Source of the DNA: Chloroflexota bacterium
GTDB taxonomy: Bacteria > Chloroflexota > Dehalococcoidia > JACQUA01
Direction: 5' to 3'
Length of the DNA stretch: 32,000 nt
Assembly (NCBI GenBank): GCA_016210565.1
Contig: JACQUA010000270.1
Span: 19,996-51,995 of the forward strand
Part shown: piece after piece, positions 7,011 to 22,407 of the stretch
How the letters are laid out: every line of letters begins with the position of its first letter
Numbering within the stretch: position 1 is the stretch's first letter
The notes under the pieces: model-generated
Told to the model about the DNA's origin: nothing
The model's database searches: none
What the model saw: the letters and a program-made list of their open reading frames with translations, nothing else
Made by a program: the position numbers and the translations under genes

Positions 7011-7073
7011 GTTACTCACCTGATGCTTCCCCGTGGGCGTTCCCCTGCATCCTTTCCGGCGAACTGTCTTCCG

Positions 7074-7718: not shown

Positions 7719-7732
7719 TGCTGTAAAAATGT

Positions 7733-7890: not shown

Positions 7891-7901
7891 CCCAGCCGTT
7901 C

Positions 7902-8642
7902 TCATTGTTCCTGTCTCACAGGCGGGGACGCCTGTGGCACCGACTGGATTGCCCCGCTTTCGAGGGCGGCGTCGGATTCTGCCAGGCGCTCGGCATCGGC
8001 GGCGGCCCCGTTGATTTTCAGGATCCTGGCAGGGACGCCCACCGCCACGGCGTTCTCAGGGACATCGTTGAAGACCACCGCCCCGGCGCCAACCGTGGCG
8101 CCTTCGCCAATCGTTAGCCGTTGCGCCACGGTCGCCCGAATGCCCACGTGGGCGTACCTCTTGATGGTCACTTTGCCCGCCAGCTTGGCCCCGGGGGAAA
8201 GGTGGGTGTGGTCTTCAATCACGTTGTCATGGTCGATGATGACGCCGGTATTTATGATGACATTGTTGCCGATGGTGGTCCCGGCGTTCACCATGGCGCC
8301 CGAGGCGATCACCACGCCTTCCCCCATTTCGACGCCCCGGGCAATGATGGACCTCGGATGAATGGCGTTTTCCAGCCTGAGGCCCAGCCCCCGCAAGCGG
8401 TTGAAAACCTCCGCCCTTACCCGGTTGTTGCCCACGGCGATGATGGCCGCGTCCAGCTTGTGCCTGGCGACCAGTTCGGGCAGGGAACCCGTACTTCCCA
8501 GGACCGGAACGCCGTCCACGACCTTGTGGTGGGAATCCCGGTCGTCGTCAACAAAGCGGATGAGCTTGACGTTCAGGTTATACCGCAGGATGTCCAGCAC
8601 CACTCTGCCGTGCCCTCCGGCCCCAACGATGACAATGTTCAT
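7902..8642 (-). CDS. NeuD-family sugar acyltransferase (second copy)
   Basis: 'MNIVIVGAGGHGRVVLDILRYN', 'NVIINTGVIIDHDNVIEDHTHLSPGAKLAGKVTI', 'AVGVPARILK'. C-terminal tail is repeat-derived. Confidence 0.9.
   Translation of the reverse strand: MNIVIVGAGGHGRVVLDILRYNLNVKLIRFVDDDRDSHHKVVDGVPVLGSTGSLPELVARHKLDAAIIAVGNNRVRAEVFNRLRGLGLRLENAIHPRSIIARGVEMGEGVVIASGAMVNAGTTIGNNVIINTGVIIDHDNVIEDHTHLSPGAKLAGKVTIKRYAHVGIRATVAQRLTIGEGATVGAGAVVFNDVPENAVAVGVPARILKINGAAADAERLAESDAALESGAIQSVPQASPPVRQEQ
7917..7936. repeat. Palindromic element CACAGGCG-GGGA-CGCCTGTG (family A)
   Basis: Perfect 8-bp stem with 4-nt loop, lying inside the 3' end of the second NeuD-like gene. Confidence 0.8.
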
Positions 8643-8792
8643 GTCAAAAAGTTGTCAGCATCCAGCCAACAGCTTTCAGCCTCCGAATCCCCGTAGCCGG
8701 CGGCTGGCTTGATAGCTAATAGCTGACAGCCGATAGCCGGCAGCCTCTTTTGCATTTTGGTTTGTCATTTAGATTTTTGACTTTTGGTTTTC

Positions 8793-9950
8793 TCAATAGG
8801 TGATCTTCTTCTGGAGAAGTTCGGGCGTACACTGCGTACTGCTCAGAACCTGGGCGATTCTCCCGCCGGCCTTGCCATCGCCGTACGGGCTCTCGCACTT
8901 TCCGACCTCGGCGAGGAACTTCTCGTCGGCCATCGCCCTTTTTATCGCTTGCACTATCTCTTCCTTCCCGTAGCCCACATCAATAACGTTCTTGCCCCGC
9001 TCCCTGCCTTCCTGTCGCGTCCCGATATTTACCGCTGGAACACCGAAAGATGGAGCATCGATTATCCCGCTGCTCGAATTTCCCACCAGTACCTTGGCGA
9101 GCTTCATCAAGCCCAGATACTCTGCCCTGGGTAAGCTGGGAATAGCTCGCAGAACCGGAAAGCGTTTCTCGTATTCCCTGATTACTTCTATCATCTCCCT
9201 TCCACCGGCGTCTGAGTTTGGATACAGCGCGATGGCAGGGTAACCCGTAGCGATAACCGCTTCCAGCGTTTGCGCCATCTGGTCGCCCGCATTCTCCACC
9301 TCGGTGGTTACCGGATGTTGCACCACCAGAACAGGGGGCTTCGACGGATCTATGCCCAATTTCTCAATCAGGACCTCGTCCGGGACCGGCTTCTCGTTCA
9401 AGATAGCATCGAGGGCCGGCGACCCGACCATGTGGATTCTCCATTCGTCCTCACCCATCTTGAGTATTCTTTCGGCGCTCCTGGGCGTGCCCGGGAAATG
9501 AATGTGCGCAAACTTGGTTATGGCATGGCGGGCATACTCATCCAGGCCACCCCTGGAACTGTCCCCACCGTGAATATGGGCCACGGGGATGTTCATGTAA
9601 GCGCTGGAGATGGCCCCTGCCAGGGGTTCTACCCGGTCGCCCAGCACCAGTACCACGTCTGGCCGCAAGTGCCTCCAGGTCTGGGCCATGCCCAGAATCC
9701 CCAGGCCGACTGATTTCGCCATCGCCTCCGAGGTGTCGCTACTGAGAAGCATATCTACCTCGGCTGCGATCGGAAAGCCGTCATTCTCTATGTCTCTGAC
9801 CGTATGGCCAAACTCACGGGAAAGATGCATTCCAGTCACTACCACTGATAACGACAGTTCCGGTCTCGCCTGGATGGCCCTCAAAACTGGAAGAAGTATG
9901 CCGTACTCTGCCCTGGTCCCGGTCACTACAGCAATCTTTCTCATCTTCAC
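8793..9950 (-). CDS. neuC: UDP-N-acetylglucosamine 2-epimerase (hydrolysing), NeuC family, canonical motifs
   Basis: 'VVTGTRAEYGIL', 'LVLGDRVEPLAGA', 'HIHGGDSSRGGLDEYARHAITK', 'VQHPVTTE', 'LVGNSSSGI'. Start at 9950 or 9941. Confidence 0.92.
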   Translation of the reverse strand: MKMRKIAVVTGTRAEYGILLPVLRAIQARPELSLSVVVTGMHLSREFGHTVRDIENDGFPIAAEVDMLLSSDTSEAMAKSVGLGILGMAQTWRHLRPDVVLVLGDRVEPLAGAISSAYMNIPVAHIHGGDSSRGGLDEYARHAITKFAHIHFPGTPRSAERILKMGEDEWRIHMVGSPALDAILNEKPVPDEVLIEKLGIDPSKPPVLVVQHPVTTEVENAGDQMAQTLEAVIATGYPAIALYPNSDAGGREMIEVIREYEKRFPVLRAIPSLPRAEYLGLMKLAKVLVGNSSSGIIDAPSFGVPAVNIGTRQEGRERGKNVIDVGYGKEEIVQAIKRAMADEKFLAEVGKCESPYGDGKAGGRIAQVLSSTQCTPELLQKKITY

Positions 9951-10996
9951 CCTATTCCGGCCCGGGTTATGATTTCGCCAGACTCTATCTTCTTCTTCGC
10001 CCTTCTGCCCACAACCGAATCCAGATACCGCGGCGCCAGTCCGGTGCCGGGCCTCTTGATATCCAGCATTTCCCGGGTGATCGCGGTCCCCGCCGGGATG
10101 TCCACGCGGGCAACGATGCTCCGCCGCACCGCCTTCCGGTTCTCTTTTTCTTCCCGGCTCAGACGCTTTATCCCGTCGCCCACGGCCCGTTCCACACCCC
10201 TGACGGCCTTCACCATTTCTTTCAATTCACCGGGGTCCAGCGAGGCCCGGTGGTCGGGGCCGGGGAATGTCTTGTCCAGGGTAAAATGCTTTTCGATGAC
10301 GCACGCCCCCAGGGCCGCCGCCGCTATGGGAGCATAGATGCCCACGGTGTGGTCAGACAGCCCGGCAGGCAATCCAAAAGTCCGTCTCAGGGTCTCTATC
10401 ACCCCGAGGTTGGCGTCTTCCAGCTTTGCCGGATAGCAGGAGACACAATGAAGCAGCACGATGTTCTTCGTTCCCTGGCTCCGGAGCACCTGTATGGCTT
10501 CCCCTATCTCATCCAGTGTGGACATGCCGGTGGAGAGAATGACGGGTTTTCCGCTGGCGGCGATGTGCTTCAACAGGGGCAGGTTGGTTATCTCGCCGGA
10601 GGGAATCTTGAATGCCGGCACGCCGAGGGCGCAAAGCAGATCGACGCTTCCCGCGTCGAATGCGGTGGAAAGGAACACGATGCCCCTTTTCCGGGCGTAG
10701 GCCGAAAGGCGTTTGAAATCCCCCGGCCGGAGTTCGAGTCTCTTGAGCATGTCGAGCTGGGCTTCATCTTCGCGGGTGGTCTGCTTCTGGTAGGGGGCCT
10801 TCCCCGCGGAGGCGGTGACTATTTCCTCGGCCTGAAAGGTCTGGAATTTGACGGCGTCGGCGCCTGCTTCAACGGCAGCGTCGATGAGCTTCATGGCCAG
10901 GTTGACGTCGCCGTTGTGATTGACCCCGGCTTCAGCGATGATGAAGCAGGGTTGGCCTTCCCCAACGGGTCTGCCGGCGACATTGAAGAACAACAA
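9947..10996 (-). CDS. neuB: N-acetylneuraminate synthase family protein, canonical (NeuB plus SAF domain)
   Basis: 'IIAEAGVNHNGD', 'AVKFQTF', 'KIPSGEI', 'VILSTGMSTLDEI', 'LLHCVSCYPAK', 'LSDHTVG', 'EKHFTLDKTFPGPDH', 'DIKRPGTGL'. 4-bp ATGA overlap with neuC. The 11125 ORF start reads through repeats; TTG 10996 is one plausible start. Confidence 0.92.
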   Translation of the reverse strand: MLFFNVAGRPVGEGQPCFIIAEAGVNHNGDVNLAMKLIDAAVEAGADAVKFQTFQAEEIVTASAGKAPYQKQTTREDEAQLDMLKRLELRPGDFKRLSAYARKRGIVFLSTAFDAGSVDLLCALGVPAFKIPSGEITNLPLLKHIAASGKPVILSTGMSTLDEIGEAIQVLRSQGTKNIVLLHCVSCYPAKLEDANLGVIETLRRTFGLPAGLSDHTVGIYAPIAAAALGACVIEKHFTLDKTFPGPDHRASLDPGELKEMVKAVRGVERAVGDGIKRLSREEKENRKAVRRSIVARVDIPAGTAITREMLDIKRPGTGLAPRYLDSVVGRRAKKKIESGEIITRAGIG

Positions 10997-11007
10997 CGCC
11001 CCGGTAC

Positions 11008-11063
11008 GACGGGCATCTTGCCCGTCGGCCGGTTCGAGGGGCCGCACGGGCGGGACGCCCGTG
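11008..11063. repeat. Two adjacent palindromes: GACGGGCA-TCT-TGCCCGTC (11008-11026) and CACGGGCG-GGA-CGCCCGTG (11045-11063)
   Basis: Two perfect 8-bp stems with 3-nt loops read directly from sequence. Confidence 0.85.
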
Positions 11064-11138
11064 CTACGGTTGGTGCGTGTCCGCCGCTGAGGCTTACGTC
11101 TTTGTGTGGTTACGTGAATTGGCATTGGTTTGGTTCAA

Positions 11139-11308
11139 CTCTCACAGGCACGGAGGCCTGTGGTACCGGTTCGGCTCTCACAGGCACGGAGGCCTGTGGT
11201 ACCGGTTCAGCTCTCACAGGCACGGAGGCCTGTGGTACCGGTTCGGCTCTCGCAGGCACGGTGGCCTGTGGTACCGGTTCGGCTCTCGCAGGCACGGTGG
11301 CCTGCGGC
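11139..11308. repeat. Tandem array, 36-bp period, 4 full units plus a partial fifth; each unit contains a CACAGGC...GCCTGTG-type hairpin
   Basis: Units begin at 11139, 11175, 11211, 11247 and 11283, consensus CTCTCACAGGCACGGAGGCCTGTGGTACCGGTTCGG. Confidence 0.93.
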
Positions 11309-11321
11309 GCTGAGTGTTCGT

Positions 11322-11383
11322 GGTGGGTTCGCGCACCCGCCACCCCCATCTTGCCAACCCCCGTGCGCTTAACCCACCCTACG
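11322..11383. repeat. Family B dispersed element, GGTGGGTTCGCGCA...GCGCTTAACCCACCCTACG
   Basis: Ends GGTGGGTT/AACCCACC are inverted; near-copies at 12805-12863, 12911-12970 and 23777-23837. Confidence 0.8.
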
Positions 11384-11450
11384 CCTGGATCGTTGGCGAT
11401 TGGAACATTCGTCATTGAATCGTCATTCGGATTTCGTCATTCGTCATTTC

Positions 11451-12767
11451 TCAATTCAGCCTCTTGAAACTGGAATGGGCCACCGGGCCGTGGGGCAACT
11501 GTTCCAGCCTGTTGTCCCTGACATAGGGTACCAGCTCACCCAGGGTCTGGTCCAGAGCGCCCAGGTAAGCACTGACCTGCTCCCTGGTATGGGCGTAGGT
11601 GGCATAGAATGCCTTTGACGACAGGAAGCCCCTGTGGAGCATCCTCTCGGTGATGATCGTATGCAGCAGGGGACTGCCGGGCGCCTTGATTTCCCAGTGC
11701 CCGAGCGGGGGGATGCCCGAAACGTCGACGGGCAGGCCGTGTTTCTCCGCCAGGCCCCGCCATCCCGCCTGCACCTGGTTGCCTATCTCAACGAGATGGG
11801 CGCTGACATTCAGCCGCCGGTGCTTGTTCAGGGTGGCCAGCGCCGCCGCCGGGCCGATCCGGTCCGTCCAGAAGGTGCTGGAGATGAAGGAGGTTTGGGC
11901 AGCCTGCATGACGCCGGCCTTCCCGAAAATGGCCGCCATGGGATAGCCGTTGCCCAGGGACTTGGCCAGTACGGCCACGTCCGGCTCGACGCCCAGTTTC
12001 AGATGGATGCCGCCGGGGGCCATCCGCAGCCCCGAGGTCACTTCGTCAAAGACCAGCGGGACGCCGCTCTCCCTGGTCTTCCGCCGGATGGTCTCCAGGA
12101 AACCCTTTTTCGGCCAGTAGTTCCTGACCGGTTCCATCACCACCGCGGCGAGCTCGCGCGAATGCTTGTTAAACAGGGACTCGAACCCATCCAGGTCGTT
12201 GTACGGAAAGGGGACCGCCGTATCCCGCAGGCCCCTGGGCACACCCTTCGGCTCCAGTCCCGGCAGCAGTTGCCCGTCCAAAGCCGTTGATTCCGCCAGG
12301 TTAGCCGAGAGATACCAATCGTGCCATCCGTGGTAGCCGCAAAACAGTATCCTGTCTTTACCCGTGGCGGCCCGCGCTATCCTGACGGCCACCGCCATGG
12401 CCTCGCCGCCGGTCCTGGCGAATCGCGCCATCTCGGCCCAGGGGTGAATCTCGCATAGGAGTTCGGCCAGCTCCACCTCTTCCGGCGCATTCAGCGTGGA
12501 CATATTGCCGGCCCTGATGGCGCCGGTAACGGCTTCATCCACGTCGGGGTCGGCGTGGCCCAGGGTGCAGGCGCCGACTCCGGAAATAGACATGTCTAAA
12601 TACCTTTTGCCGTCCAGATCCCAGACTTCCGAACCCTTCGCCCTGGAATAGTAGGCCGGCCACCGGTCCGGGAGGAAAAGCTCGGCGCGTTTCGAAAGTA
12701 GCTGGCCTCCCCCGGGGATCAGCTTTTTGGCCTTATTCCACAGTTCAGCCCCGGTATTGAGGTTCAT
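11451..12767 (-). CDS. Class III PLP-dependent aminotransferase, glutamate-1-semialdehyde 2,1-aminomutase-like
   Basis: 'EVWDLDGKRYLDMSISGVGACTLGHADP', 'FARTGGEAMAVAVRIARAATGKDRILFCGYHGWHDWY', 'LVFDEVTSGLR', PLP-lysine context 'VAVLAKSLGNGYPMAAIFG'. Confidence 0.9.
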   Translation of the reverse strand: MNLNTGAELWNKAKKLIPGGGQLLSKRAELFLPDRWPAYYSRAKGSEVWDLDGKRYLDMSISGVGACTLGHADPDVDEAVTGAIRAGNMSTLNAPEEVELAELLCEIHPWAEMARFARTGGEAMAVAVRIARAATGKDRILFCGYHGWHDWYLSANLAESTALDGQLLPGLEPKGVPRGLRDTAVPFPYNDLDGFESLFNKHSRELAAVVMEPVRNYWPKKGFLETIRRKTRESGVPLVFDEVTSGLRMAPGGIHLKLGVEPDVAVLAKSLGNGYPMAAIFGKAGVMQAAQTSFISSTFWTDRIGPAAALATLNKHRRLNVSAHLVEIGNQVQAGWRGLAEKHGLPVDVSGIPPLGHWEIKAPGSPLLHTIITERMLHRGFLSSKAFYATYAHTREQVSAYLGALDQTLGELVPYVRDNRLEQLPHGPVAHSSFKRLN

Positions 12768-12804
12768 TGCTCTCTCCTGTCACCCTGAGCCGAAACCCTG
12801 AGCC

Positions 12805-12863
12805 CGTAGGGTGGTTAAGCGCGACAGGGTGGTGTTGACGGGGGTGGTTGCGCGAACCCACCC
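12805..12863. repeat. Family B dispersed element, reverse orientation
   Basis: CGTAGGGTGGTTAAGCGCGACAGGG...GTTGCGCGAACCCACC. Confidence 0.75.
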
Positions 12864-12910
12864 TATGCACGGCAAGGCTCCATTTTGGATTTCACATTCG
12901 TCATTTCAGC

Positions 12911-12970
12911 GGTGGGTTCGCACAGCCACTCCCGTTCCCCACCACCCCTCTGTGCTTAACCCACCCTACG
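12911..12970. repeat. Family B dispersed element, forward orientation
   Basis: GGTGGGTTCGCACAGCC...GTGCTTAACCCACCCTACG; forms an inverted pair with 12805-12863. Confidence 0.78.
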
Positions 12971-12974
12971 CGGT

Positions 12975-13949
12975 TTATTTTCCTTCTATCTGATGCAGCA
13001 GTTGCAGAACTTTGATGTCCTCTTCCAGGGAGTTGGGAAAGGTCCCCCGGCCGGCCACGGCATCCAGAAACGACCGGATTTCATCGATGTACATGTTCTC
13101 GGTTATGTTCCGGTTGTAGCCCTCCGCGCTCAGCCCCTGAGGGTAAGTGTAGTGAATCCAGCTCTGGCTGGCCGCGTCATACAGATTGACCACGGCTTCA
13201 TCCCAGCGCCACAGTACCTGTCCCCTTTCCATGTTCAGCACCAGGCTCCTCGTGGCGTACCTGGAGACGACGTCGATGGTCATGCTGCCGTAGGAACCGC
13301 CGAAATCCATGGCGACCACGTAGGTATCGTCGATGTCGGCGCCAACGTCCATGGTCTTCCCGAAGAGCCCTTTGACGCTCCGGGGAAAACCGACGACATC
13401 GACCAGCCAGGTAAGCTCGAAGGGAATGATCTCCCGGCAGCCCCCGGTCTCTTTCTGGCCCACGTAGAAGTCCTTGACGGCTTCCCAGGGATGCCAGTCC
13501 GGCAGGTACTGGCCGGAATGATAGGTGAAATTGGTCACCCTGCCGTACTGGCCGCCTTTCACAATTCCCTTGATATCGCGTATCGCCGGGTGGAACCTCA
13601 GGGTGCACGAAGGGGCGATCAGGACCTTCTGCTTCCGGGCGAGCTCGTCCAGGGCGGCCAGGCCATCCAGGATCACGCTGGCTTCCACGAAGGCCGGTTT
13701 CCCGTGCCCCAGGGCGGTGCGGAGGCACTGGTTGTGCTTGTCCGGAGGGGTCGAAATAATCATCGCGTCCGCGCTATCGAGGACCTGGCTGTCCAGGCCG
13801 CCCACCACCCGGACGTTGTATTTCTCCTTGACCTCGCTCCTTCTATCCTCCCTGAGGTCAAAACCCACGATATTCTGGATTCCCAGGCTTTTCAGGCACC
13901 GCACCCTTCGTTTGCCCATGGAGCCCAGCCCCATGATCAGCACGTTCAT
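12975..13949 (-). CDS. Gfo/Idh/MocA-family oxidoreductase
   Basis: 'MNVLIMGLGSMGKRRVRCLKSLG', 'ADAMIISTPPDKHNQCLRTALGHGKPAFVEASV', C-terminal 'YIDEIRSFLDAVAGRG'. Confidence 0.88.
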   Translation of the reverse strand: MNVLIMGLGSMGKRRVRCLKSLGIQNIVGFDLREDRRSEVKEKYNVRVVGGLDSQVLDSADAMIISTPPDKHNQCLRTALGHGKPAFVEASVILDGLAALDELARKQKVLIAPSCTLRFHPAIRDIKGIVKGGQYGRVTNFTYHSGQYLPDWHPWEAVKDFYVGQKETGGCREIIPFELTWLVDVVGFPRSVKGLFGKTMDVGADIDDTYVVAMDFGGSYGSMTIDVVSRYATRSLVLNMERGQVLWRWDEAVVNLYDAASQSWIHYTYPQGLSAEGYNRNITENMYIDEIRSFLDAVAGRGTFPNSLEEDIKVLQLLHQIEGK

Positions 13950-14755
13950 TGTGTCTTGCCCTGTCGCCATCGGATCTTTTGTTCCTTCTTCTCTATGCCT
14001 TTCAGGTATTGCTCGTTGACTTCCCTGGTTATCTCGTTCAGTTCCGGATTGCGGTTGAACACGCCCACGATCTCTTTGAGGCTGAAGACCTTGCCCGGAA
14101 CGTGCAGCCTGGCAAAGACCTCCTGGAACACCTTGAAGTCCTCCTGGTAATCCAGGGTCAATCTGATGTCGGGGCGGGCCAGCTCCGGATCGTCGACCGG
14201 CACCGTTTCGACTTTGAACAGGCCGCTATCCGTGAAGTAGCGGCCCCAGACCTCGGTGTCGCTTTCGGCCTTCATCTCGCAGACCTTTTTGAGGGCGGCG
14301 ATCTTCAGGCCCACGCAGGCTATTCCCAAGGGCAACCCGTCGGTCTTGACCATGTCGGCCCCGGTGTCGATGAGCTTCTGGATGGTCTTATCAATGTAAA
14401 CGGGGTCGCACAGGATGTCGTCCCCGTCCACGGCCGCCATAAGCTCAATGCCGTATTTCGACGCGGCGCCCAGGAACCTTTCCAGCTTGTCGTCTTCGCT
14501 GCCCCGAAAGCCTTCGATGCCGTTCTTCCGGGCGATCTCCGCCAGGACGGCGTCATCGGGGTGCGTCGAGGTGCAGAGCACGACAAGGTCGGGGAGCCTG
14601 GCCGTCTTCAGCCGGTCGATAAGGTGCTCGATCGTGGTCCGGCCCAGGATTTGAAGCAGGGCTTTCTTCGGCAGCCGGGTCGATTTCATCCTCACCGCTA
14701 TGAAAATAGCGGACTTCGGGCGTTTCTCGTTTCTCTCAGTGACTACACGTGCCAT
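13946..14755 (-). CDS. Cytidylyltransferase-family protein (SpsF / CMP-KDO synthetase-like), copy 1
   Basis: 'AIFIAVRMKSTRLPKKALLQILGRTTIEHLIDRLK', 'VVLCTSTHPDDAVLAEIARKNGIEGFRGSEDD', 'AAVDGDDILCDP'. Confidence 0.85.
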   Translation of the reverse strand: MARVVTERNEKRPKSAIFIAVRMKSTRLPKKALLQILGRTTIEHLIDRLKTARLPDLVVLCTSTHPDDAVLAEIARKNGIEGFRGSEDDKLERFLGAASKYGIELMAAVDGDDILCDPVYIDKTIQKLIDTGADMVKTDGLPLGIACVGLKIAALKKVCEMKAESDTEVWGRYFTDSGLFKVETVPVDDPELARPDIRLTLDYQEDFKVFQEVFARLHVPGKVFSLKEIVGVFNRNPELNEITREVNEQYLKGIEKKEQKIRWRQGKTQ

Positions 14756-14788
14756 CTATTTCCTGCACTTTTCCGCCGGGACCGGCTG

Positions 14789-14957
14789 TAGTCGCTGACC
14801 ATACCCCACATCGAGGGCTGGACACGCGGGAAAATAAGGGGTGGCGCCCCGATGCATCGGGGCCTGCGCATGCCATGTGAGCTTTAACCTTCATAATCGT
14901 AGCTCGGTGTTGTCTAATTGTCTCGCTGGCTCCGCCTTGCGGAGCGCCACCCCCCGT
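14789..14957. repeat. Repeat-rich intergenic block: partial homolog of the 3247-3756 fold-back arm, 16-bp palindrome and 10-bp inverted pair
   Basis: CCCACATCGAGGGCTGGACAC (about 14805-14825) resembles CCCACATCTCGGGCTGGACAC of the 3.5 kb element. CCCCGATGCATCGGGG perfect palindrome at 14847-14862. GGGGTGGCGC 14838-14847 pairs with GCGCCACCCC 14944-14953. Confidence 0.6.
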
Positions 14958-14965
14958 AAATCGGT

Positions 14966-16078
14966 TCACAGTAGCTTGTCCCATGTGATTGGAACGTCCT
15001 CCTTGATGTCTACGGCGGCAGTCCTGCCGGGAATGAATTTGCTTTCATCGGGATAAACGCCATCGTCGGCCCGCTTGAAAGCGATGTCCTCAGCGGTTAT
15101 CCTGGTCCCTTTTCTTATGAGCCTCGCCGCCACGGTCCGCTTGCGCGATACCTGCCGGTAGCGCTGTTCTCCGGACGAGAGCGGTCGAAAAGAAGAAGAA
15201 CCGAAGGACTTCTCGACCTCCCGTATCTGGGCGACCAGCTTCTTGAACTCATCCGGGTTAAGGGCGGACTCGAAGTCCTCGCCCTTCAGGCTCCGGTCAT
15301 GGGTCAAATGCTTTTCGATGGCGCTGGCGCCGAAGCCCAGGGCGACCAGGGGCAGGGCAAGGGCCTGGTCAGAATCGGCGTCCACGTGGTCCGCCAGCCC
15401 CACCGGCAACCCGAAGGTCGCCTTCAGCGTCGGGATCAGCCGGAGATGGGTGTCTTCAATCCTGGTGGGGTATAGCTGGATCCCGTGAAGCAGGATGATG
15501 TCGCTCGTGCCCAGTTGCCTGATGAGACTGACGGTATTCTCTATTTCTCCCAGCGTGGCGCCCCCGATGCGGAGTATGACCGGTCTCTTTGTCCGGGCCA
15601 CCTCGGAGACCAGGTCCTGCTGGACGAAGCAGGCGGCGGCGACAACGTAGGCGTCGGCGCCGAGTTGCTCGCACAGCCTCAGGCTGGGGATATCGTTGGG
15701 CATGGCGCAGACGGCCAGCCCCAGGCTCCTGGCATAGGGGAAAATCTCTTGCCAGTCGCCGGGCCTGAGATTGGCCCGCTCCATGTATTCATAGATGCTT
15801 TCCTTCTTTTCCTCGCCCGATGTCGTTTTCCCCGCCGTAGAACCGTAGTCCTTCACCATGTAGTCCTTCAGGCTGGTGAGGTGGACGCTGACGGCATCGG
15901 CGCCGGCGCCGGCGGTTGCCTTGATGATGGTCCTGGCCTTTTCGGCGGAGCCGTCGTGGGACCAGGCCATCTCGGCGATGACAAACGCCGGCTGTCCATC
16001 GCCGACCAGCCTGTTTCCTAGCTTGATCTGAGACAATTGTTTCCTTTCTGTGTTCCAACCGTAGGGTGGGTTACCCAT
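14966..16078 (-). CDS. Divergent NeuB-family (N-acetylneuraminate/SpsE-like synthase) protein with SAF domain
   Basis: 'FVIAEMAWSHDGS', 'ILLHGIQLYPT', 'GLPVGLADHVDADSD', 'EKHLTHDRSLKGEDFESALNPDEF', C-terminal 'RKRTVAARLIRKGTRITAEDIAFKR'. Exact start uncertain. Confidence 0.82.
   Translation of the reverse strand: MGNPPYGWNTERKQLSQIKLGNRLVGDGQPAFVIAEMAWSHDGSAEKARTIIKATAGAGADAVSVHLTSLKDYMVKDYGSTAGKTTSGEEKKESIYEYMERANLRPGDWQEIFPYARSLGLAVCAMPNDIPSLRLCEQLGADAYVVAAACFVQQDLVSEVARTKRPVILRIGGATLGEIENTVSLIRQLGTSDIILLHGIQLYPTRIEDTHLRLIPTLKATFGLPVGLADHVDADSDQALALPLVALGFGASAIEKHLTHDRSLKGEDFESALNPDEFKKLVAQIREVEKSFGSSSFRPLSSGEQRYRQVSRKRTVAARLIRKGTRITAEDIAFKRADDGVYPDESKFIPGRTAAVDIKEDVPITWDKLL
16061..16075. 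repeat. Partial family B end (GTAGGGTGGGTTACC)
   Basis: Matches the reverse of the TTAACCCACCCTAC end; lies at the start region of the divergent NeuB gene. Confidence 0.5.
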
Positions 16079-16095
16079 CTGCCTTCCAGCCTGTC

Positions 16096-16932
16096 TCACG
16101 CACCGGTTTCCGGGGCGCCTGGCCAGGGGCAATAACTCTCTCCCAGGCCCTGCTCGATCAACTTCCAGCGGGCCTTTCGAATCTTATCTTCGATGCTCTT
16201 CCAGTAGTCGGCATGGACGCCCCGGTTGATTTCGAGAAGCCAGGGATGGCTGTCAAGAAACGCCACCACGTCTTTAAGCCGGAAAACAGAACCCGGAACG
16301 TACAACGCGGCAAAGATTCCCTGGAACAGCCTGAGGTCCTCGGCATAGTCCAGGGTAAGCCTGAAGCCCGGACGCCTTAACATGGGGTTATGGGGCTCCA
16401 GGGTCTTGACCCGGAAGAGCCCCGTGTCGGTGAAGTATGGCTCGAAGACCTCGGTATCGCTTTCCAGCTTGATGTCGCAGACTTTTCTCAGGGCTGCGAC
16501 CCTGATACCACGGCAGGCCGTGCCCAGGGGCAGGTCCTTCCATCTCACCAGGTCGGTGCCGCCGATGATAAGCGTCTTCAGCGTCCTGTCGATAAGCCCG
16601 GGACCATAGAAAATGTTGTCCCCGCCTACGTTAATCACATAGTGCACATCATATTTCGTGGCGGCGTCCAGCAGTCTCCGGAGCACGTCGTCCTCGCTGC
16701 CCCGGAAGGCCTCGATGCCGTTCTTTACGGCGATGTCTGCCAGGACGGCGTCGTCGGGATGGGTGGAGGTGCAAAGCACGATGAGGCCGGGCAACCTGGC
16801 CAGCTTCAGCCGGTCAATGAGGTGCTCGATCACGGGTTTGCCCTGGATTTCGATCAGGGCTTTTCGTTCCAGCCGGGTCGATTTCGTCCTGGCCGTAACA
16901 AAGATTGCGGACTTCTGCGATCTATCTGCCAT
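16096..16932 (-). CDS. Cytidylyltransferase-family protein (SpsF / CMP-KDO synthetase-like), copy 2
   Basis: 'AIFVTARTKSTRLERKALIEIQGKPVIEHLIDRLKLARLPGLIVLCTSTHPDDAVLADIAVKNGIEAFRGSEDD', clearly paralogous to 13946-14755. Confidence 0.83.
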   Translation of the reverse strand: MADRSQKSAIFVTARTKSTRLERKALIEIQGKPVIEHLIDRLKLARLPGLIVLCTSTHPDDAVLADIAVKNGIEAFRGSEDDVLRRLLDAATKYDVHYVINVGGDNIFYGPGLIDRTLKTLIIGGTDLVRWKDLPLGTACRGIRVAALRKVCDIKLESDTEVFEPYFTDTGLFRVKTLEPHNPMLRRPGFRLTLDYAEDLRLFQGIFAALYVPGSVFRLKDVVAFLDSHPWLLEINRGVHADYWKSIEDKIRKARWKLIEQGLGESYCPWPGAPETGA

Positions 16933-16958
16933 GTTGTTGCTGGGTTTTTCTTTTCTAG

Positions 16959-17001
16959 CCCCGAGGCATCGGGGTACCACAAGCCACCGTGCCTGTGAGA
17001 G
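16959..17001. repeat. CCCCGAGGCATCGGGG near-palindrome followed by an inverted, degenerate family A unit
   Basis: 16959-16974 resembles the 14847-14862 palindrome. 16975-17001 reverse-complements to CTCTCACAGGCACGGTGGCTTGTGGTACC. Confidence 0.65.
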
Positions 17002-17238
17002 GTGGCAAGCTACCAGGCCCGTTCTTTTCTAGCCAAGCGTCAGGCATACTATAACCGGATACGTTTCTTTTATCAACTTCTGGAAAAAGGGAGACACCGA
17101 AACCCTCCCTGCATCGGCCCCGCACCTCGCCCTGACGGACCATCCGCTCCTCACCCTGCTTCGGCAATCTTGCTTGTGATATCCGCCGTCCGATGGTAGA
17201 CTAATGAGCAACCTTTGGGGAAAGCGAGTATTCAGCTC

Positions 17239-18282
17239 ATGAAAGCGCAATTTGTTGACACTGTCAAAGAGCCTTATCTCATTGCAGAGACGGCGTATAA
17301 CCATGAAGGCGATCTGCGCTATCTTTATCGGATGATAGACGATATCGCCGCGCTGAAGGCCAACGCCATCAAGTTCCATATGCTATTAAACCTGGAAAGC
17401 TATTTGACCGCAGACCACCCTCATTTCCCCCTTTTCCGCAAGTGGATGTTTCCCCGGGAGGAGTGGAACCGGATCATTGACCGTTGCAAAGAAAAACAGT
17501 TGGAGGTGGTTGCGCTCTGCGACGACGTGGACAGCATCGAATACATTGTCCGTGAGGACACGCCGGTAGACGCCATAGAGCTTCATGCCACCGGGCTGAA
17601 CGATTACTTTCTGCTCGAGGCGGCCGCGAAATATGAAGGGCAGGTCATTCTGGGCATAGGGGGATCGACTCTGGACGAGATTCAATATGCCGTCAGTTTG
17701 CTGAGGCAGAGGAACAAGAATGACATATTGTTGATGTATGGTTTCCAGAGCTATCCTACCCTGTATTCGGACATCAATTTGTTGAAGATGGCAAAGATTA
17801 GAGACCTGTTCGACCTGCCGGTCGGCTACGCCGACCACACCGCGTTTGACGATCCCCGCAACGAGACCGTCAGCGTCATGGGCGCCATGATGGGCTTTCA
17901 CATTCTCGAAAAGCATTACACGCCTGACTACGGGAAAGAAAGGATAGACTACCATTCAGCGGTGGGCGCGGACGCCATGAAACGAATAAAGGAGCTGATG
18001 AAGCTGGCGCTGACGGTCCGGGGAGATGGCCATCTGGGTATGAGCGGGCCGGAACTGGAATACGGCAAGACAGGTTTCATGAAGAAGGCCATCGTGTCCA
18101 GGGACGCCATAAGACAGGGAGACAAGCTGTCGCTAGACAATCTGTGGTTCAAAAGGACAAAAGATGAAAGCACGATCAAGCAGAGCCAGTTGCTCCAACT
18201 CGTTGGTCTGGAAGTCACGCGGGACATCGGCCAAAACGAACTAGTGGATTTTGGCAGCGTCAAAAAGCCGGAGAGAAGCTAA
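17239..18282 (+). CDS. Divergent NeuB-family protein with SAF domain, second divergent type
   Basis: 'LIAETAYNHEGDLRYLYRMIDD', 'AIKFHMLLNLESYL', 'VILGIGGSTLDEIQYAVSLL', 'LLMYGFQSYPT', 'VGYADHTAFDDP', 'LEKHYTPD', 'LWFKR'. ATG 17239; the listed 17215 start is a TTG. Confidence 0.82.
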   Translation: MKAQFVDTVKEPYLIAETAYNHEGDLRYLYRMIDDIAALKANAIKFHMLLNLESYLTADHPHFPLFRKWMFPREEWNRIIDRCKEKQLEVVALCDDVDSIEYIVREDTPVDAIELHATGLNDYFLLEAAAKYEGQVILGIGGSTLDEIQYAVSLLRQRNKNDILLMYGFQSYPTLYSDINLLKMAKIRDLFDLPVGYADHTAFDDPRNETVSVMGAMMGFHILEKHYTPDYGKERIDYHSAVGADAMKRIKELMKLALTVRGDGHLGMSGPELEYGKTGFMKKAIVSRDAIRQGDKLSLDNLWFKRTKDESTIKQSQLLQLVGLEVTRDIGQNELVDFGSVKKPERS

Positions 18283-19280
18283 ACTGCGGCAGATCTGAGG
18301 AGCGCCCTTATTTCCTGCTTGCTAAGCAGCCTGGAGGTCTCTGACGTAAGCATCTTGACCGGCCGATCATGTACCCTGGGCTCCCCGGTCAACAAATCAT
18401 GCTGTATGATATACATTTGTTCGTTCTCTTCCGCGTACCAGGTTTCTTGTTCTGTCATGAGCTCCTCATGCAATTTCTCGCCAGGGCGTGCGCCGATTAT
18501 CTTTATCTTAATCTCATCCGCCCGGTATCCCTGTTTTGGGGCCTGTTCTTCGATGACTGCTTGAGCGAGATCTATGATGCGCACAGATGGCACTTTCAGG
18601 ATGAATATCTCCGCCCCCGTGGCTATTTCAGCAGCGCTCATAACTAGCTGGGCGGCTACATCGCTGGTCATTATGAATCTGGTCATGTCCTCATGGGTAA
18701 TAGTGACCGGCCCCCCCTGTTCGATCTGTTTGCTGAACACTTGAGCAACCGAGCCGGCAGAATCAAAAACGTTTCCGAACCTGACGCTGGACAACACTGT
18801 TTTTTTTGACCCTTTGTAATAGTTGGCCGCTGTAACAAGGCGCTCACCCAACAGCTTGGTCGCCCCCAGCGTGCTGATGGGGCTGCAAGCCCTGTTGGTA
18901 CTGACGTTAACGACGCTCGCGACGTTCTGAGCCAGGGCTGCATCGACGATATTTTGAGTCCCAACCACATTTGTCTTGACCGCTTCGAACGGGTTGTATT
19001 CACAGGCGCCCATGTGCTTCATGGCCGCGGTGTGGAAGACGATGTCGATGTTCTCCATAGCCATTGCCAGGCGTTCCTTGTCCCTGATGTCCCCGACCAG
19101 GTACCTTGTGTTGGCGTACTCTCGCAACTCTTGCTCCAGATGGACCAGGGCCTGCTCGCCGTTGCCAAGTATTCTGACCACCTTAGGCCCGTGCTGCAAC
19201 ACTTTACGCACTATTTTAGCGCCGATTGACCCGGCCCCCCCCGTAACCAGAACTGCTTTATTCCTGAAGTAGTCGCTCAT
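18279..19280 (-). CDS. CapD/PseB/LegB-like nucleotide-sugar 4,6-dehydratase family protein
   Basis: 'AVLVTGGAGSIGAKIV', 'VFHTAAMKHMGACEYNPFEAVKTNVVGTQNIVDAA', 'STNRACSPISTLGATKLLGERL', 'SSVRFGNVFDSAGSV', 'GARPGEKLHEELMT'. Confidence 0.87.
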   Translation of the reverse strand: MSDYFRNKAVLVTGGAGSIGAKIVRKVLQHGPKVVRILGNGEQALVHLEQELREYANTRYLVGDIRDKERLAMAMENIDIVFHTAAMKHMGACEYNPFEAVKTNVVGTQNIVDAALAQNVASVVNVSTNRACSPISTLGATKLLGERLVTAANYYKGSKKTVLSSVRFGNVFDSAGSVAQVFSKQIEQGGPVTITHEDMTRFIMTSDVAAQLVMSAAEIATGAEIFILKVPSVRIIDLAQAVIEEQAPKQGYRADEIKIKIIGARPGEKLHEELMTEQETWYAEENEQMYIIQHDLLTGEPRVHDRPVKMLTSETSRLLSKQEIRALLRSAAV

Positions 19281-19327
19281 TTCGTTCCCCCTGGTCGATT
19301 CCTTTAGTGCGGGGAGAGCCGCCGTTC

Positions 19328-20473
19328 CTAGTACGACAGCCTCTTCTGAATCAGGGTATGGTCCTCAAGGTCCACGCTCTTCAGAATCTCAGCAATCCTC
19401 GCAGAAGCCTTCCCGTCCCCGTAAGGGCTGGTACAGCTCGCCAGCCTCTCCCGGAATTCGGCGTCGCAAATGGCTTTCGTGATGGCTTGGAATATGTCCT
19501 GGGAGTCATATCCCGCGTTGATGACGTTCCCGGCCTGCATTCTTCCCTGCTGGCGGGTTCCGATATTGACGGCGGGAAGATGGAGGGCAGGCGCCTCTAC
19601 AATTCCGGAACTGGAGTTGCCTACCAGCACGCTGGCCACCTTCATCAGACTCCCGTAAACCTCGAATGGCAGGTTCTTGTGAGCCTGAATCCTGGTCTTC
19701 TCGATTTCACGAATTATCCTGCGCCCACCCGCATCGACATTGGGATAGATGAGGATAGCCTGCACGCCGGTCTTCTTTACCGCGTCGAGAGTCAGCATGA
19801 TTTGCCCGGTGGCCTCGTCAGCTTCGGTGGTTACTGCGTGCTGCAAAACGACGATTAGCGGTTGGGACAAATCTAGATCGAATTGTCGGGCAAGCGTCTC
19901 CGGTCTCACGAAATCCATGTTGAGCAAGGCGTCCAGCGAAGGACAGCCGACGTTGAACACATATCGTGGGTTTTCGCCCATTCTGATGAGCCGCTCCGCA
20001 CTTGCCCGATTCGTTGCAAAGTGAAGATGGGCAAAGCGAGTAGTTGCGTGGCGGAGACTTTCGTCTATGCTGCCGGTCAGTTCGCCACCCTCGATGTGTG
20101 CAACCGGAATGTTCATGTGGGCCGCGGCCACGGCCGCCGCCAGGTGGGCGCCCAGGTCAAACCCCACCAGCATAATATCAGGCCGCATGTCCTCGAGGAC
20201 GTCGGTGAATTCGACCAAACCCCGGCCCAGGGCCCTGGCCATGTCGGCCCCACTATCTTTATCGCTGCCCGAAGACATAGGTACTCGGGCCGCAATGGGA
20301 AAGCCGTCATTCTCAATGAGATGAACTGTAAGCCCCAGCTCCGGTAGGAGATGATGGCCGGCAACTATTAGTCGCAAGTCAAATGCCGGGCTTTCAATAA
20401 TCTTCCGGAGGACCGGCCTGAGCTTGCTGTAATCAGCCCTTCTTTCGGTCAGGGCGCAGATTCGTCTTACCAC
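19328..20473 (-). CDS. NeuC/LegG-family hydrolysing 2-epimerase-like protein with divergent N-terminal motifs
   Basis: 'HIEGGELTGSIDESLRHATTRFAHLHF', 'VVLQHAVTTEAD', 'VLVGNSSSGIVEAPALHLPAVNIGTRQQGR', but N-terminal 'ALTERRADYSKL' and 'LVGFDLGAHLA'. Confidence 0.83.
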   Translation of the reverse strand: MVRRICALTERRADYSKLRPVLRKIIESPAFDLRLIVAGHHLLPELGLTVHLIENDGFPIAARVPMSSGSDKDSGADMARALGRGLVEFTDVLEDMRPDIMLVGFDLGAHLAAAVAAAHMNIPVAHIEGGELTGSIDESLRHATTRFAHLHFATNRASAERLIRMGENPRYVFNVGCPSLDALLNMDFVRPETLARQFDLDLSQPLIVVLQHAVTTEADEATGQIMLTLDAVKKTGVQAILIYPNVDAGGRRIIREIEKTRIQAHKNLPFEVYGSLMKVASVLVGNSSSGIVEAPALHLPAVNIGTRQQGRMQAGNVINAGYDSQDIFQAITKAICDAEFRERLASCTSPYGDGKASARIAEILKSVDLEDHTLIQKRLSY

Positions 20474-21534
20474 CGGTCACCCCGGGCGCGCTTGCCCGCG
20501 GCAAAGTCCTGCCGGCTTATCAGGGTGTCAGAGTCAATGTTCCGGCTGGCCCTTCGTCCCAGGATCTTGCCCAGGTGTACCGCCGGAATCCCGGTACCCG
20601 GCCTCTTGACCCACGTATTGTCGACGGTGAAGCGCTCTCCTTTTTTTATGTCTTTGATGGCGACCACACTGGCATAGGCGAAATCGATGGTGGGTTTTTC
20701 TTCACTCAAGATGGTTTTATGACCGCCGAGAGACTGATGGATGGCTTTGCTGCCGTTTACCAGGTCCTTCAACTCCGCAGGCGTCATGGAGATCGGTACG
20801 TCCGGCCCCGGCCATCTCCTGCTTGAGGTAAAGTGCTTCTCCAGTATACTGGCTCCCAAGGAAATGGCGGCAAAACAGGTGTAGTTACCGAGAGAATGGT
20901 CGCTGAGACCCAGGACAGCTTCAGGAAACCGCGATTTCAGGTCCGCCAGCGCGCCCAATCTGACTTTATCGTAGGGCGTTGGATACATGGACGTACAATG
21001 AAGCAAGGCATAGGGCGCCCCGGCCCTTTCTAAAATACCGACACTCCTGGCGATGCTCCCTAGATCATTCATTCCGGTGCTGAGAATGACGGGCTTTCGG
21101 AACGAAGCGATATGTTCCACCAGGGGGTAATTATTGCACTCTCCGGAGCCAATCTTGTACGCTACAACCCCCAATCTCTCTAACCGGTCGGCGGCTGCCC
21201 TGGAAAACGGCGTGCACAGGTAGATCATGCCCATCTTCTCCGCGTATTGTTTTAGCTTTCTTTCTTCCTCCTCGGTGAGGCTGCACCTTTCCATGATAGC
21301 GTAAATCGATTCTGTGGCGTTCCCGGGGATAATCTTTTTGGCTTCCGGGACCATTTCGTCTTCAACAACGTGTGATTGGAATTTGACGCATTCGGCGCCG
21401 GCGCGATGAGCATCCGCAATCATCTTCTTTGCTTTCTCAAAGCTACCTTCGTGGTTGATACCTATTTCAGGGATGACAAACGGGGGGTGGTCCTCCCCAA
21501 TGGTCCGATGTGCAATTTGAATCTCAGGTTTCAT
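20467..21534 (-). CDS. neuB: N-acetylneuraminate / legionaminate synthase (canonical NeuB family, SAF domain)
   Basis: 'MKPEIQIAHRTIGEDHPPFVIPEIGINHEGS', 'CVKFQSH', 'KIGSGE', 'VILSTGM', 'LLHCTSMYPTPY', 'LSDHSLG', 'EKHFTSSRRWPGPDVPISMTPAEL', 'WVKRPGTGI'. ORF start 21609 overlaps the next gene. Confidence 0.9.
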   Translation of the reverse strand: MKPEIQIAHRTIGEDHPPFVIPEIGINHEGSFEKAKKMIADAHRAGAECVKFQSHVVEDEMVPEAKKIIPGNATESIYAIMERCSLTEEEERKLKQYAEKMGMIYLCTPFSRAAADRLERLGVVAYKIGSGECNNYPLVEHIASFRKPVILSTGMNDLGSIARSVGILERAGAPYALLHCTSMYPTPYDKVRLGALADLKSRFPEAVLGLSDHSLGNYTCFAAISLGASILEKHFTSSRRWPGPDVPISMTPAELKDLVNGSKAIHQSLGGHKTILSEEKPTIDFAYASVVAIKDIKKGERFTVDNTWVKRPGTGIPAVHLGKILGRRASRNIDSDTLISRQDFAAGKRARGDRW

Positions 21535-21538
21535 GATT

Positions 21539-22369
21539 TCACCAGCAGGTCCATCCGCCGTCGACAACCAGGTTATGGCCGGTAACGTAGGTTGATGCGT
21601 CAGAGGCAAGAAATATGACCGCCCCGTTTATTTCATCGGGCCTTGCCTTTCGTCCCAGAGGCGTCCTCTCACCATAATTCCTGACAAAAGTTTCATTCTC
21701 GTCTTTCTGGAAGATGCCGCCAGGGGATATAGAGTTCACTCGAATGTTGTCTTTCCCATAATACGCCGCCAGGTATCGGGTGAAGTTTATCAATCCCCCT
21801 TTGGCGGCATTGTACACACCGTGGGCATGAACTTCCATTGTGTCCTTATCAGGAGTCACGTATATCTTGCCAAGATTGGCGCCCCTGTATATTCTCTGGT
21901 CGTTACCAACTATGCCGTAGTGCGAGGCAATGTTTACTATTGAGCCTCTTTGCTGCTTCACCATGATGGGGATGAAGCTCTGGATGGTCAAAAAGGGTAT
22001 GGTCAGATTTCCCAGCAGGCCCACATTCCATCCCTCTAACGACACTTCTTCGAACGGCCGGTAATAGTCCGGAGGCCTCAGCGTTGACATGTTGATAAGA
22101 ACGTCAACATCCTGTTCCTTTTTCAGAATCAGTTCTCTGGCCTTGACAATCTCTTCTTTATTGGTGCAGTCGACCCTTAACAGGCGAAACTTATTTTCGT
22201 ACTTCTCCTTGAGCTCGACTATTTCTTGAGATTCGGTGGTGTTGATGTCAAGAACGTACAACACAGCGCCGAATTCAAGAATCGCCCTCGAAAACTTCCT
22301 ACCTAAATACCCGTTGCCTCCCACCAATACCACGACCTTGTTGTCCAATCTGAACGCGGAGTCTCCCAT
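21539..22369 (-). CDS. Classical SDR-family oxidoreductase (PtmA-like in context)
   Basis: 'KVVVLVGGNGYLGRKFSRAIL', 'YNAAKGGLINFTRYLAAYYGKDNIRVNSISPGGI', 'AVIFLASDASTYVTGHNLVVDGGWTCW'. Confidence 0.88.
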   Translation of the reverse strand: MGDSAFRLDNKVVVLVGGNGYLGRKFSRAILEFGAVLYVLDINTTESQEIVELKEKYENKFRLLRVDCTNKEEIVKARELILKKEQDVDVLINMSTLRPPDYYRPFEEVSLEGWNVGLLGNLTIPFLTIQSFIPIMVKQQRGSIVNIASHYGIVGNDQRIYRGANLGKIYVTPDKDTMEVHAHGVYNAAKGGLINFTRYLAAYYGKDNIRVNSISPGGIFQKDENETFVRNYGERTPLGRKARPDEINGAVIFLASDASTYVTGHNLVVDGGWTCW

Positions 22370-22407
22370 ATTGTTTGATTTCCTGTGACGCGCCGTGGAC
22401 ACAAACG

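Follow-up and report, generated by a model that had tools for sequence, protein, structure and literature searches.

Two probable nonulosonic acid modules in a Chloroflexota contig, each pairing a canonical NeuB synthase with a non-canonical NeuB-fold protein

Four genes for proteins of the NeuB family of nonulosonic acid synthases lie close together in a 32,000-nucleotide stretch of DNA from a Chloroflexota bacterium (assembly GCA_016210565.1, contig JACQUA010000270.1, forward-strand positions 19,996 to 51,995), which we call the window and from whose first letter we count. We name the four N1 (9947-10996), N2 (14966-16036), N3 (17239-18282) and N4 (20467-21534). In all likelihood the window carries two nonulosonic acid modules side by side, each with a canonical synthase (N1, N4) and a non-canonical NeuB partner (N2, N3), and the juxtaposition of two modules explains the four-fold NeuB count. 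Our overall reading adds that N2 and N3 would act without phosphoenolpyruvate (PEP), as partners of a cytidylyltransferase in the pathway of the canonical synthase; judged from residues and gene order, we give this fuller reading about an even chance.

The original prediction had located four NeuB-family open reading frames (ORFs) between 9947 and 21534, two with canonical motifs and two that depart from them, and our searches agree on both points. All four proteins match Pfam family PF03102 far beyond chance, with E-values of 3.5e-100 for N1 (as ORF 9947-11125), 1.5e-54 for N2, 3.9e-32 for N3 and 2.7e-75 for N4. Every motif that had been quoted is present in the translations: AEAGVNHNG, VKFQ, STGM, LLHCVSCYP, SDH and KRPGTG in N1, and PEIGINHEG, VKFQ, STGM, LLHCTSMYP, SDH and KRPGTG in N4; at the same places N2 has AEMAWSHDG, VSVH, RIGG, LLHGIQLYP, ADH and KRADDG, and N3 has AETAYNHEG, IKFH, GIGG, LMYGFQSYP, ADH and KRTKDE. 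Against TIGR03569 (cutoff 399.65 bits) N1 scores above the cutoff (466) and N4 just below it (379.6), with N2 at 226 and N3 at 147; against TIGR03586 (cutoff 340.25 bits) N2 (207) and N3 (112) both fall below. Among the NCBIfam and other curated families, none other than those of NeuB type claims N2 or N3, and NCBIfam also gives weak DAHP-synthase matches for N1 and N2. The nearest solved relatives are Bacillus subtilis SpsE (1vli) for N1 (228 bits) and N2 (131 bits), Neisseria meningitidis NeuB (NmNeuB, 1xuu) for N4 (426 bits, 56% identity) and Leptospira borgpetersenii NeuB (6ncs) for N3 (95 bits). B. subtilis SpsE is genetically needed for legionaminic acid.

The fold is retained in the divergent proteins, as had been predicted. 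AlphaFold models of N2 (predicted local distance difference test score, pLDDT, 92) and N3 (pLDDT 87) superpose on NmNeuB 1xuu with template modelling (TM) scores of 0.82 and 0.80, and as the alignments extend across 343-356 columns of 1xuu (343 for N3), both the TIM barrel and the SAF domain are present. Pfam detects the SAF domain in N1, N2 and N4, and none in N3. For N2, predicted at 14966-16078, the start is more likely at 16036, giving 356 residues, as in the NCBI protein P0001 and the N2 orthologues.

The evidence that sets N2 and N3 apart comes from their active sites. We numbered residues after NmNeuB and mapped them onto the four window proteins and 240 family members (120 N2-type and 120 N3-type), and then onto 135 and later 210 NeuB-like ORFs from related loci. 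In NmNeuB, the PEP phosphate is bound by S132, S154 and S213 together with N184, and the PEP carboxylate by K53 and K129; H215 and H236 are the metal ligands, and D247, Q55, Y186 and R314 contact N-acetylmannosamine (PMC11339185, citing Gunawan 2005). The three phosphate-binding serines are described there as fully conserved from bacteria to mammals. The putative catalytic acids are E25, E134 and E234, of which E134D is the sole variation reported among catalytic residues in the largest published NeuB phylogeny, and R314 works across the dimer interface (PMC8208679).

N1 and N4 have the complete canonical residue set, including S132/S154/S213, K53/K129 and E25/E134/E234. In N2 and N3, by comparison, the three phosphate serines read A/R/A and A/G/A, and position 184 is Q in both. 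Of the carboxylate lysines 53 and 129, each K in 100% of 107 canonical ORFs, N2 has lost both (S/V) and N3 one (K/E). Position 134 is C in N2 and G in N3. In full, the substitutions are K53S, Q55H, T110M, K129V, S132A, E134C, S154R and S213A in N2, and Q55H, T110L, K129E, G131H, S132A, E134G, S154G and S213A in N3.

Both proteins keep E25, H30, Y186, D214, H215, E234, H236, D247, K313 and R314; E25, E234 and the acetamido-binding R314 are found in all four window proteins. The metal ligands H215 and H236, which are the histidines of the 'SDH' and 'EKH' motifs and not that of 'LLHC', are likewise kept in N1-N4 and in at least 99% of the 120 N2- and 120 N3-family members. The altered states of N2 and N3 are the consensus of 120 relatives each and not idiosyncrasies of the window, and the new residues H55 and Q184 (both types) and E129 and H131 (N3) are nearly invariant across more than 100 sequences. 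By this mapping, the half of the site predicted to hold the metal and the acetamido sugar is preserved in N2 and N3, and the half predicted to hold PEP is rebuilt. We therefore lean, narrowly, towards the view that N2 and N3 would not carry out the canonical PEP reaction.

N2 and N3 are conserved under purifying selection. Orthologues of each form more than 120 clusters at 50-76% identity in bacteria and archaea, and dN/dS (the ratio of nonsynonymous to synonymous substitution rates) between moderately close orthologue pairs is 0.03-0.25 for the N2 type and 0.10-0.23 for the N3 type. The hosts include Chloroflexi, Dehalococcoidia, Bdellovibrionota, Alpha- and Gammaproteobacteria and, among the archaea, Hadarchaeota, Thermoplasmatota, Nitrosopumilaceae, Heimdallarchaeota, Altiarchaeota and others. 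Cultured carriers include Legionella moravica, L. bononiensis, Azospirillum soli, Skermanella stibiiresistens, Kiloniella litopenaei and Ca. Nitrosotalea devanaterra. A search of the plasmids in PLSDB found no N2-type genes; all matches there are canonical and below 34% identity. Two trivial explanations of the four copies, which the original prediction had named as its own refutations, can be discarded on this basis: pseudogenes by the intact ORFs, the hundreds of orthologues and the dN/dS values, and recent tandem duplication because the four are deep paralogues with 21-38% pairwise identity in separate clades.

The window and 160 related loci supplied 210 NeuB-like ORFs for a distance-based neighbour-joining tree; the related loci were sampled by seeding with N2 and N3 motifs and are hence enriched for divergent copies. 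In this tree the canonical synthases are separated from a single clade that unites all non-canonical types (N2, N3, a subtype we call N2b and three intermediates), with a bootstrap of 100/100 in an 84-taxon subsample and 100 each for the N2 and N3 groups. The clade is marked by G27A, C182G, Q184, the loss of S213, a hydrophobic residue in place of T155, and S251A; N2 and N3 carry A27, G182, Q184, a replacement of S213, and A251. One basal member (locus L132, ORF 5919) retains K53, Q55, K129, S132 and D134, and from this near-canonical state we infer that the ancestor of the clade was probably a normal PEP-dependent synthase whose donor site decayed or changed stepwise. Public annotations call clade proteins 'N-acetylneuraminate synthase family protein', 'sialic acid synthase SpsE' or 'N,N'-diacetyllegionaminate synthase'.

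The N2b subtype (loci L048-L060, e.g. L048 10001-11020) has K53Q, T110C, Y186F and S213Q and keeps K129, D134 and S154; its genes, too, lie directly 5' of a cytidylyltransferase gene. A further NeuB-like type (L028 11871-13463 and L033 17577-18749) has H236P, at a metal ligand, and Q55E, and the L028 ORF has an extra N-terminal extension of 180 residues.

The genomic context of the clade is equally distinctive. Genes in the related loci were labelled by phmmer against the window proteins, with a check against precomputed Pfam matches in six loci, and 43 loci had full flanks (at least 8 kb on both sides). Wherever the contig left room, the next gene downstream of a divergent NeuB gene was an SpsF-type cytidylyltransferase in 70 of 82 cases (N2 32/38, N3 29/33, N2b 9/11). 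Most full-flank loci have a single cytidylyltransferase (38/43) and a canonical synthase in the same locus (35/43). Typical gene orders, in which CTP stands for the cytidylyltransferase, GFO for a GFO/IDH/MocA oxidoreductase, AT3 for a class-III aminotransferase and SDR for a short-chain dehydrogenase, are N2-CTP-(GFO-AT3)-N1-NeuC-PglD-DegT-dehydratase, N3-CTP-N1-NeuC-PglD-DegT-dehydratase and dehydratase-DegT-(PglD)-NeuC-N1-PtmE-N3-CTP-GFO-SDR; clusters with no separate N2 or N3 gene read CTP-N1-NeuC-PglD-DegT. The divergent NeuB is a seventh component, placed 5' of the cytidylyltransferase, in an otherwise complete six-enzyme pathway of legionaminic type.

In four genomes the two are a single protein of 574-588 residues, in which a full divergent-clade NeuB domain (barrel and SAF) is fused to an SpsF-type cytidylyltransferase: L061 1321-3075 (Dehalococcoidales), L064 994-2760 (Micrarchaeota), L068 4059-5801 (Thermoplasmata) and L135 3219-4943. 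In the first three, the N-terminal 330 residues are the divergent-clade NeuB domain, and each of the four fusion genes is immediately followed by a gene for a canonical synthase. That the fusion occurs in four lineages distant from one another argues for joint action of the divergent NeuB and the cytidylyltransferase.

The genes of the window that belong to the two modules are the following.

7074-7718, minus strand: NeuD/PglD-family sugar N-acetyltransferase, module A (PglD_a; TIGR03570 200.8 bits, cutoff 160.8; Pfam PglD_N and Hexapep)
7902-8642, minus strand: second NeuD/PglD-family acetyltransferase, module A (TIGR03570 233.5 bits; Pfam)
8793-9950, minus strand: NeuC_a, NeuC-type hydrolysing UDP-GlcNAc 2-epimerase (TIGR03568 449.7 bits, cutoff 235.9; Pfam Epimerase_2)
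9947-10996, minus strand: N1, canonical nonulosonic acid synthase, SpsE/LegI-like (TIGR03569 466 bits; canonical residues)
11451-12767, minus strand: AT3, class-III aminotransferase resembling glutamate-1-semialdehyde (GSA) aminomutase (Pfam Aminotran_3)
12975-13970, minus strand: GFO/IDH/MocA oxidoreductase (Pfam; conserved order N2-CTP-GFO-AT3), which shares its family and cluster position with PtmF
13946-14755, minus strand: CTP_a, SpsF-type cytidylyltransferase directly 3' of N2 (Pfam CTP_transf_3 1.3e-13; best PDB match 6oew, 'Cytidylyltransferase')
14966-16036, minus strand: N2, non-canonical NeuB-fold protein (divergent clade, bootstrap 100)
16096-16980, minus strand: CTP_b, SpsF-type cytidylyltransferase, divergently oriented from N3 (Pfam CTP_transf_3 6.6e-15; best PDB match 6oew)
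17239-18282, plus strand: N3, non-canonical NeuB-fold protein (divergent clade, bootstrap 100)
18279-19280, minus strand: PseB/PglF-like UDP-GlcNAc 4,6-dehydratase, module B (Pfam Polysacc_synt_2 1.5e-95; TIGR03589 298 bits, under its cutoff)
19328-20473, minus strand: NeuC_b, NeuC-type hydrolysing 2-epimerase (TIGR03568 394 bits, cutoff 235.9)
20467-21534, minus strand: N4, canonical synthase, NmNeuB-like (1xuu 426 bits; TIGR03569 379.6; canonical residues)
21539-22402, minus strand: SDR (Pfam adh_short_C2; order N3-CTP-GFO-SDR in related loci), which shares its family and cluster position with PtmA
22408-23739, minus strand: DegT/LegC-family sugar aminotransferase (TIGR04181 'LegC family' 221 bits, under its cutoff; Pfam DegT)
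23824-25821, minus strand: candidate nonulosonic acid glycosyltransferase of 665 residues, of which the C-terminal ~150 match the BFO_1060 glycosyltransferase family and TIGR04396

The six functions of a legionaminic-type pathway (4,6-dehydratase, aminotransferase, N-acetyltransferase, hydrolysing 2-epimerase, synthase and cytidylyltransferase) are all encoded in 7074-23739, which makes this a predicted legionaminic-acid-type cluster, although the stereoisomer of the nonulosonic acid cannot be read from sequence. Module A runs along the minus strand from 16980 to 7074 and comprises CTP_b, N2, CTP_a, GFO, AT3, N1, NeuC_a and the two NeuD/PglD genes; its order without CTP_b is conserved in loci L005, L025 and L003. 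Module B (17239-23739) comprises N3 on the plus strand, the dehydratase, NeuC_b, N4, the SDR and the LegC-family aminotransferase, followed by the candidate transferase, homologues of which often lie directly 5' of N2 or N3 genes. N3 and CTP_b share a divergent intergenic region of 258 bp. The window holds exactly two NeuC genes, two cytidylyltransferase genes and two canonical and two non-canonical NeuB genes, with the canonical synthases paired as N1 with NeuC_a and N4 with NeuC_b. Four copies had been called unusual, and among 161 loci the window is indeed the sole one with four NeuB genes; in the same sample, biased towards divergent copies, 66 loci have two.

The PDB relatives of AT3 include GSA aminomutases and aminoglycoside C-6' aminotransferases, and AT3 is syntenic with N2-type genes in many genomes. 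GFO and AT3 (11451-13970) lie near the two NeuD-type acetyltransferases (7074-8642); speculatively, these enzymes together could add an extra acetamido group at the level of the free acid.

What might N2 and N3 do? Since the phosphate pocket is lost clade-wide and the carboxylate lysines only in some branches, their ligand is probably a carboxylate without a phosphate, and the most plausible candidate would be the nine-carbon acid in its open-chain form. Because these proteins are coupled to the cytidylyltransferase and a canonical synthase is present as well, we favour a step that follows synthesis and precedes activation with cytidine monophosphate (CMP). As a best guess, the clade would catalyse a PEP-independent step coupled to CMP activation, with N2 and N3 as partner enzymes of the cytidylyltransferase in the pathway of the canonical synthase. 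A metal-assisted retro-aldol/aldol or elimination/hydration at C3-C4 would suit the chemistry of this site and could invert C4 before CMP activation; alternatively, the step could be a condensation with a non-phosphorylated donor, e.g. pyruvate. A new metal-dependent, PEP-independent activity of this kind, be it C4 epimerisation or the use of a non-phosphorylated donor, is a tentative proposal, and we hold the specific chemistry on the nine-carbon acid to be just as doubtful. The output of the locus would be two CMP-activated acids or variants, not four.

Several observations weigh against PEP-independent partner enzymes. The proposed mechanism is argued from residue loss and gene context. The neighbour-joining tree is open to long-branch attraction. 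K129 persists in the basal clade member, N2b and the fusion types, together with an acidic or polar residue at position 134, and some clade members may still be PEP-dependent synthases. N2 has acquired a conserved Arg/Lys at 154 and a His at 55, which might form a new phosphate site. N2 lies directly 5' of CTP_a, but N3 adjoins CTP_b without being co-directional with a cytidylyltransferase. In 5 of the 22 full-flank N2 loci, including those of Legionella moravica and Azospirillum soli, there is no canonical synthase within 10 kb, which is simpler to explain if N2 is itself a synthase.

These points lend themselves to the alternative that survives best, namely that N2 and N3 are still PEP-dependent α-keto-acid synthases, with a remodelled pocket and other aldoses as substrates, so that the locus would make three or four ulosonic acids. 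In its favour, the metal ligands, E25, E234, D247 and R314 are invariant, the conserved R/K154 and H55 of N2 could bind phosphate, the basal member retains K53, K129, S132 and D134, autonomous clusters of the order rSAM-N2-CTP-GFO-AT3 (rSAM, radical S-adenosylmethionine protein) or N2-CTP-GFO-AT3-SDR have no canonical synthase within 10 kb, and a synthase might naturally become fused to the enzyme that acts after it. Yet all three phosphate serines and E134 are replaced in both N2 and N3, N2 lacks both PEP-carboxylate lysines, the four NeuB genes of the window face two NeuC-type aldose suppliers and two cytidylyltransferases, and 38 of 43 loci have just one cytidylyltransferase for a six-enzyme pathway that is already complete and includes a canonical synthase. 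We consider this alternative improbable, though it deserves to be taken seriously.

The same evidence divides the suggestion, made with the original prediction, that one locus makes several nonulosonic acids. More than one acid is plausible, with an SpsE-like N1 and an NmNeuB-like N4 each adjoining its own NeuC-type 2-epimerase. Four synthases for several acids are not supported, because N2 and N3 lack the PEP phosphate pocket, Glu134 and an aldose-supplying partner of their own, and because their clade normally sits beside the sole cytidylyltransferase of clusters that already have a canonical synthase and is fused to it in four genomes.

A second alternative is that N2 and N3 catalyse nothing and are pseudoenzymes with a scaffold or regulatory role, tethering the cytidylyltransferase or regulating it; in one version they would form the domain-swapped NeuB dimer together with the canonical synthase and supply R314 in trans. 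The loss of PEP-binding and catalytic residues, the gene overlap and fusion with the cytidylyltransferase and the retention of R314, which acts across the dimer interface in NmNeuB, would all fit. However, both metal histidines, E25, E234, D247 and Y186 are invariant, dN/dS reaches down to 0.03-0.07, and the new residues (H55, Q184 and, in N3, H131/E129) are invariant across more than 100 sequences, which points to a changed active site and not a decayed one. Pseudoenzymes thus appear distinctly unlikely.

Finally, the four-copy arrangement could be an artefact of assembly or binning that unites pieces of different genomes, as the DNA comes from a Chloroflexi metagenome-assembled genome and its GC content at third codon positions (GC3) shifts near 17 kb, but this is scarcely credible: contigs independently assembled from two sequencing runs match 12952-19989, which contains N2, CTP_b, N3, the dehydratase and part of NeuC_b, at 100% identity, a third contig spans SDR-N4 into NeuC_b, and the order N2-CTP-GFO-AT3-N1-NeuC-PglD is kept in other genomes. 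The NCBI proteins P0001 and P0121 are identical to N2 and N3; exact-sequence look-ups of N2, with either start, returned no match on record. GC3 is 0.75-0.80 from PglD_a to CTP_b (7074-16980), except for NeuC_a with 0.67, 0.61-0.68 from N3 through the 665-residue protein (17239-25821), and 0.47-0.63 in the outer genes. The step at ~17 kb suggests that the two blocks differ in history, and by this measure the surface-glycan gene island looks mosaic.

Compared with canonical NeuB, LegI, PseI and SpsE synthases, exemplified by NmNeuB (1xuu/1xuz), of which N1 and N4 are ordinary members, N2 and N3 share the TIM barrel and SAF domain (TM 0.80-0.82), the metal histidines, E25, E234, D247, Y186 and R314, but lack S132, S154, S213, E134 and K129 (and K53 in N2), form a separate clade and have a fixed site directly 5' of the cytidylyltransferase. 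In structural similarity, the NeuB family is followed by the KDO8P and DAHP synthases of the alpha-carboxyketose synthase superfamily (TM 0.55-0.60), which rely on conserved lysines to bind PEP; unlike N2 and N3, they have no SAF domain, and they use a different aldose.

The known legionaminic clusters (Campylobacter jejuni ptm/leg, Plesiomonas shigelloides, B. subtilis sps) have the six enzyme families in common with the window, and genes of the PtmF (GFO), PtmA (SDR) and sometimes PtmE families likewise occur in the window or in related loci. The clusters described so far have neither a second, non-canonical NeuB beside the cytidylyltransferase nor a class-III aminotransferase, which N2-type loci have. 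PtmF is annotated as an oxidoreductase in legionaminic acid clusters (PMC4481668).

Loci with several neuB genes are known from C. jejuni and Leptospira, and in having more than one NeuB homologue they resemble the window. The NeuB paralogues of C. jejuni are canonical, and the one Leptospira NeuB compared (L. borgpetersenii 6ncs) has canonical motifs wherever the alignment shows them, whereas the extra copies of the window have a remodelled donor site. Three neuB genes are given for C. jejuni (Linton 2000, as cited in a later source), and the Leptospira interrogans cluster has two synthases, two CMP-synthetases and extra aminotransferases; several neuB and cytidylyltransferase genes per locus have been taken as synthesis of several nonulosonic acids (PMC3438082). 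In our literature searches, neither the clade nor its altered site, fixed position or fusion was described, and no PEP-independent NeuB homologue came up, so that a non-canonical, cytidylyltransferase-coupled NeuB clade appears to be previously undescribed. Unexplained CMP-C10 ulosonic acids occur in Magnetospirillum gryphiswaldense (SugarBase preprint); a link to them is unsupported, as there is no Magnetospirillum orthologue among the named N2 and N3 matches.

Many bacteria and archaea cap their surface glycans, flagella and S-layers with nonulosonic acids (sialic, legionaminic and pseudaminic acids and their isomers), which shape recognition by phages and the immune system as well as adhesion. 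Genome surveys count each NeuB homologue as a synthase; with a large and ancient branch in which the PEP phosphate pocket is missing and the genes are linked to the activation step, the numbers of nonulosonic acids predicted from neuB copy number are inflated. Many legionaminic-type pathways have an unrecognised seventh component, and orthologues are at hand in cultured organisms. Should the clade prove PEP-independent, a well-studied fold, itself an antibiotic target, would gain a new reaction, and the clade could provide, in hundreds of environmental bacteria and archaea, the missing biosynthetic step for nonulosonic acid isomers of unexplained origin.

Some minor observations concern the related loci. 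In Legionella moravica DSM 19234 (L024 6901-18437), the order GT2-GT2-MBL-N2-CTP-GFO-AT3-CN_hydrolase-SDR-Wzm-Wzt forms an apparently self-contained polysaccharide cluster of ABC-transporter type, with neither a canonical NeuB nor a NeuC gene within 10 kb. A radical-SAM/SPASM gene lies directly 5' of N2-type genes in many genomes (L003 8936-9910, L005 8263-9270, also L029, L031, L032, L035, L039 and L043), though not in the window. One such protein is fused to a cytidylyltransferase domain (L006 5553-7340), the sole radical-SAM fusion seen; a fusion to canonical NeuB in Planctomycetes, suspected from long ORFs, was dropped when a domain-level search gave no radical-SAM domain.

Elsewhere in the window, a second sugar pathway at 26925-30890 comprises a DegT aminotransferase, a sugar N-formyltransferase and two epimerase/dehydratases, and the RfbH-like gene at 30929-32000 is truncated by the window edge and is not a pseudogene. 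At 17029-17379 (minus strand), an ORF of 116 residues that matches no family overlaps N3 at its start; it is unlikely to be a gene. Two ORFs at 4927-7019, of 294 and 385 residues, have no Pfam or NCBIfam match; homologues of the 385-residue protein recur beside acetyltransferases in L003, L061 and L086.

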